64,000 nt of DNA. Source: Longimicrobiales bacterium. Lineage in GTDB: Bacteria; Gemmatimonadota; Gemmatimonadetes; Longimicrobiales; Gaopeijiaceae. This document shows positions 46,880 through 56,661 of the stretch, one piece after another (within the stretch, counting starts at the first letter, position 1; each line of letters opens with the position of its first letter). The translations under genes were made by a program, and so were the position numbers. The notes below the pieces were generated by a model that saw nothing but the letters and a program-made list of their open reading frames with translations, made no database searches and had not been told where the DNA came from. The stretch covers positions 576,001 to 640,000 of the forward strand of contig CAXXKM010000003.1 of assembly GCA_963664435.2 (NCBI GenBank), in the 5' to 3' direction.

Positions 46880-47024
46880 TCCCGCCAATGTAGGCGGCTT
46901 CTCCCGCCAATCATCACGATGGACTCAGATCGGGTCCAACGGCAAGAATGGCAGATCGTGCAGTCCCTATTGAACTTACGTGATTTCCTGCCGTGATTTG
47001 GCTTTCGGGTATTCCGCGTACCCC
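46880..47024 (+). repeat. Conserved ~140-bp att-like element, copy 1
   Basis: TCCCGCCAA x2 (22-bp spacing), GCAGATCGTGCAGTCC at 46951, GAACTTACGTGAT, TTCCGC. Confidence 0.85.
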
Positions 47025-47105
47025 GTGGCCACACTTCGCGTGTCCCCAGGAGAGGCTGGCGGGGGGCCGTGCCCCCTCTGACCCCCGGAACGGAAACGGC
47101 GCGCC

Positions 47106-47372
47106 GTGAGCGCCGGACGCGCCGTTTGGGTGAAGGTCCGCGCGAGCGAAGCGGAGCATGCCGAGTGGCACGCCAAGGCGCGCTCCGCAGGCCTCACGCT
47201 GTCGGATCTGGTGCGTCGGTCGATCGGCCGGACGCGCACCTGGACCGTCGCGCACGCCAAGGTCGAGCGCGAGCGCACCCGCCAGGTGGCGCGCATCGAG
47301 ACCGGTCGTCGTCCTTGCCGGCTGTTCTTCGGCCACGGTAATCTCATGCGTATCAGCCGACAGCTCGCGTAA
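47106..47372 (+). pseudogene. mobC: Degenerate MobC-like relaxosome accessory gene
   Basis: VKVRASEAEHAEW..KA..AGLTLSDLVR RHH; RQVARI is followed by a broken GNNLNQ motif; no relaxase downstream. Confidence 0.7.
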
Positions 47373-47468
47373 CAGTCGTAATCATCGAGTGTTGCACGAC
47401 ACGTCCGGCTCGCAGCCGGTGCGAAAGGAAGCCCCAACGCCGAACGGGCAGTGCGAGGAGAGACCGAC

Positions 47469-53240: not shown

Positions 53241-55072
53241 AGGGAGGCCTTGAGCGCGGCTTCGAAGGTGTCCCACAGCTGCATGAACTCGTCGGGCACG
53301 ATGTCGTCGGCGTCCCCCGCAAGGTCCGACTCGCGCAGGTGCTGGATCAGGCGACGCACCGTGTCCAGCCGCGCGGGGTCGCGGCAGTAGGCCCGCGTCA
53401 TCTCTTCGAGCAAAGGAAGGGAGCCGAAGCCGGAGCCTCCGGCGCCCGCGCCCGAACCCCCGTTGATCGTCCCGCTGGTGTCCTGCGCAACTCCCGTGGT
53501 CGTATAGGGGTCGAACGCGCCCAAAAGGAAGAGGATGTAGCGCAGGAAGCCGCGCTGGTTGCGGACCATTCGGCGCGCGATCTCATCGTTGCGCTCGCAA
53601 ACGGGAAATCCGTCGACCGGGACGCACAGAACAAAGACCTCCGGCGCAACCTCGGGATCCTTCGCCCTGAAGCCGATTCTGAAGGCGACGAAGCGGGTGA
53701 CCTGCGCGATGTCCATCGGCGCGAAGTCGATATCGCCACCATTCAGAAGAGGGCGACCGTCCGCTACGCGTTTACGGGGTAGCGTGATGGGCCATACGTC
53801 AACCTCAAGGTCGGACGACAGATCGATCGAGCTCGCGCTGCGGAGGCGGAGATGCCAGCGGTCTCCGCCGTCGCCGTCTCCCCGGTAGCAGATCAGGCGC
53901 AGGTCGGCAGCCGCGACCGCTCCGCAGGCATCCTCGAGGATCCTCTTGCACCCGTTGAGGACCGGATCGGGGCCGGGGCCGTCCGGCGGAACGAAGTCCT
54001 CCAGTACCGCCCCGAGTCCGTCATCGCCCAGCAACGTCTCCGCCGTTCCCAGCGCCTCCGGCCGCCCGACCAGCTCCGCCATCACCTCCACGCCGCCGCT
54101 CCCGTGATGCGTGGCGTTGATCGACCCCACAAACAGCCGCGTCCGGCCAGCCACCTCGCACAGGTACACCTTCGCGTGGAGGCTGTCGTCCAGCAGCTCG
54201 CTCAGGACCAAGCACCGCTCGAAGCGTTCCAGCGCGGCAGGCGCCTGGTGGTGAATGCGGGCCAACTCCTCTGGGCGCGAGACAAGCGTCGGCGGCGAGT
54301 CGCTCCGGCGCGCCATCTCGAACAGCGCGTTCGGTGTACAGAACGGCGACATCACGACCAGCCGCCGTGACCTCGGAGGCCGCCACTCCTTGAGACCCGA
54401 GCCGATGGCGTGCAGGCGGAACTCGTCCACGTGACCGGGGAGCTCCCAGACGGTGCGTTCCACGTCGCCCGCCAGCGAGTCGATCTGCTCGGCGCGGTCC
54501 TTGGGCAGGGTTGAGGACATATCAGGCAGAGCCCGGAACAGGGTCGCCAACTCCGCGTTCTCCGGCACGGCGTCGCCTCGGGGATGGCCCTGCGCCATCA
54601 CCGATACGTCCCACGAGTGGTCGCCGGTCAGATTGCGGGACATGACGGCCAAGCGGATGAGTCGGCCCGCCCCTCCGTCCGCATAGCCATCATCCACCGG
54701 CACGAACCGGAGCACCCACACCTTTGGGTGAAAGATGCCGCCGCCGCGGGGCGCAGCCGCATGCAGCGAGTCTTCCAGCATGGAGTAGAGGACGTTGCTC
54801 CGCCGGGGCGGGTGTATTCCGCCTCGCTGATGGAAGACCGTGATCCGGTCCGTCGTTTGCCGCAGTCCGTACAGGAGCGCCACCGGGTCGGCGAGGAGTT
54901 CGGAATCCGGGCGGTCCCCCGCGTGGAGGAGCAGGTGCAACGGCACGGCGAGCAGCATGTCCAGGTTGAGCGAGTACGTGAGCGCCACCGCGCAGTCGAA
55001 GCGACAGCCCGGCGGCGGGGTGAGCGCCCGCGTGTAGACCGTGCGGTCCCGATGCGGATCGAGCAGCGTCAT
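53237..55072 (-). CDS. Phospholipase-D-like nuclease (two HxK motifs; Azaca ZacB-like)
   Basis: FHPKVW...SRNLT and LHAKVY...GSINAT. Confidence 0.85.
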   Translation of the reverse strand: MTLLDPHRDRTVYTRALTPPPGCRFDCAVALTYSLNLDMLLAVPLHLLLHAGDRPDSELLADPVALLYGLRQTTDRITVFHQRGGIHPPRRSNVLYSMLEDSLHAAAPRGGGIFHPKVWVLRFVPVDDGYADGGAGRLIRLAVMSRNLTGDHSWDVSVMAQGHPRGDAVPENAELATLFRALPDMSSTLPKDRAEQIDSLAGDVERTVWELPGHVDEFRLHAIGSGLKEWRPPRSRRLVVMSPFCTPNALFEMARRSDSPPTLVSRPEELARIHHQAPAALERFERCLVLSELLDDSLHAKVYLCEVAGRTRLFVGSINATHHGSGGVEVMAELVGRPEALGTAETLLGDDGLGAVLEDFVPPDGPGPDPVLNGCKRILEDACGAVAAADLRLICYRGDGDGGDRWHLRLRSASSIDLSSDLEVDVWPITLPRKRVADGRPLLNGGDIDFAPMDIAQVTRFVAFRIGFRAKDPEVAPEVFVLCVPVDGFPVCERNDEIARRMVRNQRGFLRYILFLLGAFDPYTTTGVAQDTSGTINGGSGAGAGGSGFGSLPLLEEMTRAYCRDPARLDTVRRLIQHLRESDLAGDADDIVPDEFMQLWDTFEAALKASL

Positions 55073-56244
55073 GCGGTAGCCCCCAGCCCCTCACCCAGCT
55101 CCCGCAGGAACCGGCGCACCACCGGCCAGCGGTAATCCATCCGACCCATCCCCGACCCTCCTCCCCACTCAGCCAGCATCTTCTCGTTGCGGAAGCGCGA
55201 ACGCACGCCCTTGAGCGCCTTCTCGCGGCGGCGAACCAGCGTGGCCGCTTCAGAGTCGTCCGCCGGAGCGCCATGCTCTTGCACATCAAGAACACCCGCT
55301 TTGACCAAAGCCATCCACTCGCTCACGAACGCCCTCGTGCCGTGGTTGATCCGTGCGCTGCGGGCGACGGTCGCCCAGAAGTCGTCCACCGACCAGGCCG
55401 CCAGCGCCGAACGATCCAGCCGCCGCGACCACTTCGCCAGCTGGCCCTCGTAGTGGGCGGCCTTGTCTTCGCTGGCCGGGCGTTCCAGCCCTCGCGTCCC
55501 GGCATGGACTCTCCGCGCCAGCAGCAGGTTGTAGAGCACCGGCGCGCCGTAGATCACTTCGGAGAACAGCCGGGCATGTTCGACTTGCTCCTTGTGCTCG
55601 GGCGCAAAATCCGCGTAACCCGGATGCTCCCATACGAAGCCGCACCCGTCCGCTTCCCCGGCGTTCTTCGCCCTCACCTGCCTGAAGAGGTGCGCCAGCA
55701 GGCTTTGCGGCAGCGACTGCGCCACCCGGTCCTGCAGATACTCGGCCTCGGCTGCGGTGAGCGACAGCATGTCCAGCTTCGGAAACCCGCGAGGGGGCGT
55801 CGGCAGCCCTGCGTGCCACGTCCGCCCCCCATTGCCGCTGCCAGCGGCGCGCACCCGCAACCCCCACGCATCGCCCAGTCCGAAGTACCAGCTCGGGAGC
55901 CCCTTGAGCCTGCGTCTGGAGCGCCTTCCGTACACGCCGTCCTCGGTCGTCGTCCACAAGTGCTCAAGCACGTCCAGCTCGCGCTCCCTACCCAGTCGCC
56001 AGAAGTCGCCGCGGGGCATCCTCTCCCGTTCCAGCGCGCGATAGACCCACGGCACTATGAGCGAGAAGCGCAGCCGCGTCTGGGCGGTGTTGGTTCCGGG
56101 GAACAGCAGGTTGGAGAAGGCGTCGCGGATCGTGCCCAATCCCATCTCGTCGCGGGATCCCGGCTGGTTGAAGAGGCCAAGCAGCTCGTGGGCTCGCTTG
56201 CGGGCTTCTTGATCCTGGTCAATCCAAGCGAGGGTGAAGGTCAT
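55069..56244 (-). CDS. DUF6361-like protein (Azaca ZacA-like)
   Basis: LAWID...RDEMGLGTIRDAFSNLLFPGT.T.QTR.RF...PW N-terminus, DYRW C-terminus. Confidence 0.8.
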   Translation of the reverse strand: MTFTLAWIDQDQEARKRAHELLGLFNQPGSRDEMGLGTIRDAFSNLLFPGTNTAQTRLRFSLIVPWVYRALERERMPRGDFWRLGRERELDVLEHLWTTTEDGVYGRRSRRRLKGLPSWYFGLGDAWGLRVRAAGSGNGGRTWHAGLPTPPRGFPKLDMLSLTAAEAEYLQDRVAQSLPQSLLAHLFRQVRAKNAGEADGCGFVWEHPGYADFAPEHKEQVEHARLFSEVIYGAPVLYNLLLARRVHAGTRGLERPASEDKAAHYEGQLAKWSRRLDRSALAAWSVDDFWATVARSARINHGTRAFVSEWMALVKAGVLDVQEHGAPADDSEAATLVRRREKALKGVRSRFRNEKMLAEWGGGSGMGRMDYRWPVVRRFLRELGEGLGATA

Positions 56245-56521
56245 CGAGGCATCGTGGCCCGTTGAGGTTCCCTTCCTGACCCACAAACTGCATGCTCAAT
56301 GTATCACTCCTTGGGCGAGCGTCGGCGCGATTCCCATCCTGCGCGAGGACCGGGTGGAGGAGGTCAAGACGACACGAAGACACGCCCGCCCGCCCAACGG
56401 CCGTTATCGACCGGAACCCTTCCACGGGTCCAACACCCTCCGATACGGTCGATGGTATTCCCGCTCAGGACGGCGAAGGGCCGGACGCGGCTCATAGCCA
56501 GCGGATCAGGGACTCGGTCCG

Positions 56522-56661
56522 TCCCGCCACTCGCTGGCGGTTTTCCCGCCATTCGCGCACCGTTGAGCCGGACATGGCCCAACGGAATGAAACGCAGATC
56601 GTGGAGTCCTGTAATGACTTTGGAAAATCCCTTGCCGGGATTCAGGCCTGAGGCGATCCGC
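56522..56661 (+). repeat. Conserved ~140-bp att-like element, copy 3
   Basis: TCCCGCCAC/TCCCGCCAT (22-bp spacing), GCAGATCGTGGAGTCC at 56594, GCCTGAGG, TCCGC. Confidence 0.85.

Follow-up and report, generated by a model that had tools for sequence, protein, structure and literature searches.

Within a 64,000-nucleotide stretch of a Longimicrobiales bacterium genome (the window; C3:576001-640000; source genome 4.5 Mb, 68% GC), an element of about 140 bp occurs three times beside blocks of surface-protein and defense genes, and a tyrosine integrase gene lies near the left edge. The three copies are real, as claimed in an earlier reading made from the sequence only (the sequence-only reading); all are on the + strand, starting at 46880, 49236, and 56522. 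Here, the element was identified, almost certainly, as the integrase-distal end (far end) of a multicopy family of tyrosine-integrase integrative elements. A 16-mer within it, GCAGATCGTGCAGTCC, is shared between the far ends and the leaders of the integrase genes. On covariation and folding models, the 16-mer of the end likely serves as an RNA trigger, such that integrase translation would be turned on only once the element is excised as a circle.

Copy 1 (46880-47017, +) was delimited by profile and motif spacing and terminates in TCCGC. Its arm boxes (TTCCCGCCA in the far end) begin at 46880 and 46902, its inverted pair lies at 46939-46948 and 46985-46994, and its 16-mer spans 46951-46966. 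The adjoining 7-bp overlap (47018-47024, +) has a 7-mer identical to that of L144, a complete element targeting an origin of transfer (oriT). Copy 2 (49236-49373, +) has its 16-mer at 49307-49322 and its overlap at 49374-49380 (+). Copy 3 (56522-56661, +), the right border of a genomic island, is decayed, with one extra base and one transversion within its 16-mer (56594-56609). Its overlap (56662-56668, +) falls within the 5' end of a host aminotransferase class V gene. The architecture described from the sequence was reproduced, with box pairs 22 bp apart, a degenerate second box in copy 2, an inverted GGCGG between the boxes of copies 1 and 3, and the 16-mer placed 71, 71, and 72 bp from the first box. 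In the far ends generally, the boxes are phased almost without indels, and the 16-mer is partly palindromic. A 10-bp inverted repeat around the 16-mer covaries (84% paired; 0 of 500 shuffles). The end alignment (A3) includes L129, which is not a true end. A coding role for the end was rejected, as each frame is open in at most 55 of 136 copies. As for TTGAACTTA, it is one base off the integration host factor consensus and may or may not be such a site.

The repeat had been described as a local feature of three copies, and this did not stand. A profile built from them gave more than 40 further matches at E<1e-8 across the 4.5-Mb genome, which holds 45 full end copies with a core by profile search; a reversed-pattern control gave 0 matches across 41 genomes. 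Same-orientation ends often lie in runs (11 adjacent pairs less than 15 kb apart in the source genome). In another context, directly 5' of a tyrosine integrase gene, the 16-mer was found about 27 further times. One such copy, at 6336-6351, precedes the window's integrase gene P0001 (6372-7535, +; PF00589) and was not mentioned by the sequence-only reading. The source genome encodes about 30 integrase paralogues, 66 to 99% identical to P0001. Just past each int stop codon is a conserved near end, with the same TTCCCGCC-type boxes as the far end, and the far end faces it at a distance of 4 to 43 kb. The integrase-proximal end at 7540-7637 (+; overlap 7631-7637), the only partner near end in the window, belongs to a complete 43-kb sibling whose far end lies outside the window (C3:540408-540558).

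Complete elements are ordered far end, cargo, xis (where present), int, and near end, and are bounded by an exact 7-bp direct repeat, 50 to 52 bp past the 16-mer. In the source genome, 28 far ends face a near end no more than 50 kb away, and 21 of these pairs had the same 7-mer at both junctions, compared with 36 of 1,362 nonfacing combinations (2.6% null). Agreement in other genomes was 17 of 20, and a second set from other genomes gave 23 of 31, with four duplicates of the earlier set; 24 of the 45 end copies in the source genome had no matched partner end. The end motif occurred in 19 of 41 genomes, comprising all but one of the 20 genomes that had an integrase match and none of the 21 without. 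The sole integrase-positive genome lacking it had one distant integrase match only, and G008, of the same genus, had neither motif nor integrase. Integrase homologues numbered 2,905 at E<=1e-20, with up to about 38 matches per genome. Close relatives were mostly in records named Candidatus Palauibacter, Longimicrobiales, or Gemmatimonadota, with a few in Gammaproteobacteria and one in a Vicinamibacteraceae bin. The cargo of complete members includes MobA/VirD2-type relaxase, coupling-protein, restriction, and leucine-rich-repeat (LRR) genes. Given the end pairing, the co-occurrence of motif and integrase, and the integrase fold, the end is therefore the far att arm of a lambda-type integrative element, in line with the att-like ends proposed from the sequence. 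The family consists of lambda-type tyrosine-integrase elements of Candidatus Palauibacter-type Gemmatimonadota and is often mobilizable.

Among 75 homologues of P0001, R236 and Y367 were invariant and H333 and R336 nearly so. Its predicted model (predicted local distance difference test score, 92.8) matched the lambda and Tn1549 Int folds and showed three strands and one helix at the N terminus (residues 22 to 68). This is the layout of arm-binding recombinases in the available part of PMC8138268, and the N-terminal region of P0001 is predicted to be an arm-binding-type domain. Its Atlas neighbors gave PF02920 and PF14657 at 0.95, as a lead; P0001 itself had no Pfam arm-binding match, and a sequence search of PDB gave no match.

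The leader of this integrase (6336-6390, +) overlaps the last codons of an excisionase-like helix-turn-helix gene (5986-6375, +). The 16-mer forms the 5' arm of a predicted start-codon hairpin (-23.5 kcal/mol; z, -3.7), with the Shine-Dalgarno sequence in or at the loop. Bases 6 to 16 of the 16-mer were predicted to pair with the start-codon region in 75 of 76 leaders (mean z, -2.75). The start was predicted to be buried in 72 of the 76, with the Shine-Dalgarno region mostly open. The surrounding xis frame decays, but the DNA sequence of the leader 16-mer is fixed (GTG in 94 of 94); a full xis-like open reading frame was recognizable in only about 11 of the 64 elements listed, and the 16-mer was retained. 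Most of 19 distant elements (Int 38 to 49% identical) keep a start-codon hairpin with a changed sequence. About 45 bp 5' of the 16-mer (window 6290-6335 and homologous leaders) are also kept, even without xis, and could hold an int promoter inside xis.

The far end bears the 16-mer on the strand opposite to int, and the joined ends therefore place its complement downstream of the int stop. In joined ends, the distance from stop to complement had a median of 153 nt (range, 75 to 233), and no run of five T lay between them in 45 near arms. Pairing was tested cell by cell on cognate far-end/leader pairs, on the int-sense strand. The first set of 36 pairs gave 542 identical, 34 G·U, and 0 mismatched cells; the opposite polarity would turn all 34 differences into mismatches. 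A new set of 19 pairs gave 295 identical, 8 G·U, and 1 mismatched cell. The dereplicated total of 50 pairs was 761 identical, 38 G·U, and 1 mismatched, with 38 of the 39 differences G·U compatible. Shuffled partners gave 8.3 mismatches, and none of 10,000 shuffles was as good. Fully compensated states occurred at 16-mer positions 3, 12, and 14, and pair-breaking states never occurred in the 50 pairs. On the Int tree, which covers 47 of these pairs, the common wobble variants arose at least 10, 9, and 4 times. Strand-specific mutation as a cause of the wobble bias was rejected because seven other motifs in the same ends showed no strand bias (122 versus 92). In seven elements with an Int 38 to 49% identical to P0001, where the far end was fixed by an 18- to 45-bp repeat, the far end tracked the diverged leader 16-mer at the same offset (96 of 112 bases). 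Judging from this covariation, RNA pairing between the leader and the far end quite probably occurs.

In the model that we infer from the predicted hairpin, the geometry of the joined ends, and the covariation, the junction would be transcribed, the two segments would pair in vivo, and the effect would be activating. In the integrated state, the leader hairpin would bury the start codon and Int would be off. Alternatively, Int would be made only by coupling to xis translation, which, where xis is present, could open the hairpin for excision. Upon excision, the far end would come to lie about 150 nt past the int stop, and read-through RNA from the circle would carry the complement of the leader 16-mer. 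This complement would pair at the exposed first bases of the leader and unzip the hairpin, and Int would then be made for reintegration. Whether pairing activates Int in the circle is evenly balanced. The chances are about equal, too, that this widespread integrase family senses its own recombination state by RNA, as a natural toehold-like switch with its trigger 1.3 kb downstream of the hairpin.

Several observations weigh against this model. In the seven distant pairs, 8 G·U cells stood beside 8 mismatches and the polarity was not seen, and 12 of the 19 distant elements had no verified 16-mer match in the DNA examined. The 38 wobble cells are confined to 7 positions, and because of this, a conservative sign test gave p of about 0.008. 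The hairpin of the leader itself could also have shaped the variants on the leader side. The predicted gain from a forced duplex was small (mean, -1.7 kcal/mol; negative in 32 of 49 pairs), and the predicted accessibility of the start rose modestly, from 0.20 to 0.41. Whole-transcript folds contained the duplex in only three of eight circles (and in none of eight integrated forms), and the far end folded barely better on the int-sense strand (78 of 138). RNAalifold gave no consensus structure for the end on either strand (about -2 kcal/mol). This consensus folding misses the inverted repeat of the far end, in which 23 of the 35 double changes lie at one pair. Lastly, no excision joint was among those listed for four runs (orphan ends only).

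The 7-bp overlap is probably element specific. Its position was callable in 79 of 105 elements, among which 48 distinct 7-mers were found, and the 7-mer tracks the integrase tree while the host flanks differ. The Hamming distance between overlaps was 0.26 at Int identities of at least 97% and 5.0 below 80%. This pattern fits homology-dependent exchange with weak core specificity. With arm boxes, weak core sites, and lambda-type recombination, the overlap would work as a target address. That the elements retarget themselves by drift of the overlap, alongside a recombination-gated RNA switch, is a proposition as easily doubted as accepted. At L172, the two junctions differ at two of the seven overlap bases, possibly a retargeting intermediate.

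Distant relatives were inserted in tRNA-Ile or tRNA-Pro genes. One integrase clade targets AGCCAGC followed by the 7-mer, and this AGCCAGC|N7 site lies 95 to 207 bp upstream of mobC-like genes. Among 32 mobC-like loci (34 rows minus 2 duplicates), 20 had an intact site, 9 had a far end inserted at that point, and 3 had neither. The target site may resemble a ColE1-type nic site. In the window, copy 1 adjoins the right half of a sibling's oriT-like site and a truncated mobC/NikA-like gene, its target (47018-47301, +; PF21983, E of 6.8e-8), and the overlap of copy 2 adjoins the right half of a second oriT-like site (49374-49437, +). Elsewhere in the source genome (G000), family elements were observed inside sibling integrase genes near codons 55 to 60 (C2:129270, C2:1091611, C1:1571114, and C2:112677). 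Another element (C2:832121-839140) sits between a sibling's 16-mer and start codon and would cut that leader hairpin.

The island bordered by copy 3 is about 15 kb long and absent from relatives. Position ~41560 joins 56660 in 11 of the 14 relatives with the flanking gene; of the other three, two retain the tail of copy 3, and in the third the contig stops. The boundary of the island coincides exactly with the break in synteny, in support of the sequence-only reading, and synteny in the relatives resumes at the copy 3 overlap. The target was the first codons of the aminotransferase gene, with CCAGC followed by the 7-mer of copy 3. The insertion removed the start of this gene, which in relatives begins with a twin-arginine-like motif, the 7-bp target being the RR codons. 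At the left border is a 57-bp remnant of an integrase 3' end (41562-41618, -), also absent from the earlier reading. It is closest to the clade targeting AGCCAGC|N7 (89.5%), and no near end was found at this border in a search of the window.

The cargo comprises an immunoglobulin (Ig)-LRR-peptidase M66 gene (41737-46864, +), split by a 1,594-bp insertion sequence (42677-44270, +; HTH_Tnp_1 and rve), a second Ig-domain gene (47451-49157, +), and a three-gene operon (49824-56286, -; PADLOC ZacA/ZacB/ZacC, i.e., DUF6361, unknown, and helicase). Copy 3 had been said to close this DUF6361 operon. It does adjoin it, but the operon is on the minus strand and copy 3 therefore lies at its 5' side. The insertion sequence is 100% identical at two other sites in the genome, and neither variant L200 nor run X7 contains it. 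Piecewise and without differences, the window layout was matched by contigs of three public runs. Parts without cover in run X7 were left out of account. Of 18 other genomes of the genus, 3 had the defense operon, at 92 to 97% identity. We consider it very probable that the window copies are orphans left by nested (Russian-doll) insertion followed by deletion of the integrase ends. The order of nesting is obscured by the direction of an element's own oriT relative to int, which was codirectional in 22 cases and opposite in 4 (noisy motif matches).

Four other explanations were weighed. The most serious, though unlikely, is that Xis, Int, or a regulator binds the 16-mer as double-stranded DNA, once in the att arm and once at an int operator, without RNA pairing. 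Its partly palindromic form among phased boxes almost free of indels suits such a site, a coevolving protein could change both sites together, and autoregulation of int from att arms is known, as described for KplE1 in the available part of PMC2951348. However, the changes tolerated at one site are the opposite of those tolerated at the other, and combinations that would break the int-sense duplex are absent from the 50 pairs. The leader site is, moreover, an arm of a start-codon hairpin conserved also in distant relatives, and it stays where the xis-like frame is gone. Somewhat less likely still, the pairing is real and has another effect, repressing or destabilizing the int mRNA of the circle, or a promoter formed at the junction yields a separate trigger RNA. 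Covariation is blind to the sign of the effect and to cis versus trans action, a 16-bp duplex is a possible RNase III substrate, as in icaR (PMC3868564, available part), and the equilibrium gain in accessibility is modest. Nevertheless, pairing would remove the arm that buries the start, accessibility was predicted to rise in 47 of 49 pairs, and the Shine-Dalgarno sequence lies outside the duplex.

The remaining two bear on the copies themselves. The sequence-only reading had proposed that integrase-less cassettes with att-like ends accreted in tandem into an integron-like array and are mobilized in trans. Every copy does bound a cargo block, the island varies between strains, sibling integrases are abundant, and accretion with cis-mobilizable elements (CIMEs) is known (PMC5704250, available part). 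Even so, this is very improbable. The three copies have three different overlaps and three different targets, no partner end lies between them in the window, and P0001 scored 17.2 bits against a cutoff of 265 for the IntI model (TIGR02249). The insertion sequence, copy 2, and the defense operon are all missing from a 98.9% identical variant, whose breakpoints (49193/49401 and 49694/56519) are away from the crossovers at 49374 and 56662, contrary to gain and loss of modules at the copies. No full-length end was found beside the three other operon loci in the DNA examined (a short contig in G017). The breakpoints and these loci therefore make the cassette-array reading fail. Least credible of all is an independent dispersed repeat, such as a miniature inverted-repeat transposable element (MITE), a repetitive extragenic palindrome, or a stand-alone noncoding RNA. 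It would accommodate the 45 dispersed copies, 24 of them unmatched, and the covarying inverted repeat. It is already refuted by the fixed-offset direct repeats common to the integrase ends, and the strict pairing with integrase ends, the strict co-occurrence with integrases, and the lack of terminal inverted repeats also speak against it. The possibility of a MITE or known noncoding RNA had been raised from the sequence; a scan of the window gave no Rfam match, and the RNA part survives in another sense, as a portion of the end likely acts through RNA. In summary, the feature is real, the array idea is rejected, and the RNA switch is probable.

Like lambda and mv4, the family has a predicted three-strand/one-helix N-terminal domain followed by core and catalytic domains, repeated arm-like boxes in both ends, an identical 7-bp overlap, and tRNA targets in distant relatives. 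For mv4 Int in vitro, any 7-mer works if both sites match, as described in the available part of bioRxiv 10.1101/2023.11.06.565760. Unlike in lambda and mv4, the overlap here is naturally diversified (48 distinct among 79), integrase matches reach about 38 in a single genome, and host genes are targeted as well as oriT-like sites and sibling int genes. In streptococci and Staphylococcus aureus, tyrosine-integrase elements (IME_oriT) occupy the oriT of other elements (PMC7563843 and PMC5704250, available parts). Similarly, far ends of the family sit in a conserved site before mobilization genes (9 of the 32 mobC-like loci, and copies 1 and 2); the comparison is one of insertion habit. In contrast to IME_oriT, the phylum is different, and the targets precede NikA/MobC-like and MobA/VirD2-like genes of siblings rather than lying in MobT integrative and conjugative elements (ICEs). 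Stacked recombination sites between cargo blocks recall integrons and CIME/ICE accretion. Unlike integrons, the family has no attC-like cassettes and no IntI; unlike in CIME/ICE accretion, no shared att site is reused, with three different overlaps and no near ends.

In lambda, integration parts the sib site from int, and sib acts through RNase III. The geometry is alike in that the distal element of the family is joined to int only in the circle. That sib, distal to int, sets Int output is described in the available part of PMC2951348. Unlike sib, the distal site of the family has complementarity to the int leader, and its predicted effect is to raise Int from the circle. In ICEKp1, int expression depends on the joined ends (PMC13023037, available part). 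There, the account concerns transcription, with the end upstream of int, whereas the int gene of the family points to the junction and control would be translational. In S. aureus icaR, a 3' region pairs with the leader of the same mRNA (PMC3868564, available part). The icaR pairing represses and, in that part of the account, is not tied to DNA rearrangement. Synthetic toehold switches are hairpins with the ribosome site in the loop, a stem that holds the start codon, and a 5' toehold left exposed. The predicted leader hairpin of the family is similar, with the Shine-Dalgarno sequence in or at the loop, the start codon in the stem, and exposed first bases, but toehold switches are engineered devices that respond to a separate trigger. 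Lambda sib, ICEKp1, and icaR do not combine a recombination-created 3' trigger with a start-codon hairpin. No published account was found of the family or of an integrase mRNA whose leader pairs with the far end, in a search that did not reach most subscription journals or any supplements; the available text of PMC10469786, on Palauibacterales, contains no occurrence of integrase or recombinase.

Some neighboring features were also recorded. Window positions 1-7637 are the right part of the complete 43-kb conjugative member, with coupling protein, secretion ATPase, ArdC, xis, and int genes, and an integrase 99% identical to that of the 43-kb element sits in a 31-kb element on C1. Directly outside its near end, at 7664-15314, are Thoeris ThsA/ThsB and a type I restriction system, and a FitA-like antitoxin and PIN toxin pair lies at 31130-32133. 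Elsewhere in G000, five same-orientation far ends are stacked in one element bounded by a 29-bp tRNA-like repeat (C3:1152399-1202457). At L104:8149-9498 and L154:8018-9367, an IS110-family transposase gene lies between the mobilization region and int.

What is new here is that the invariant 16-mer of the end is also the 5' arm of a hairpin predicted to bury the integrase start codon. How an integrase is on in the circle and quiet when integrated is understood for few systems, and an RNA switch, if true, would be a new answer. In addition, the family constitutes a large natural library of integrases whose target is seemingly set mostly by the 7-bp overlap, which bears on retargetable integrases. 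For the bacteria themselves, the family explains the pile-up of Ig-LRR surface genes and defense operons in these genomes.

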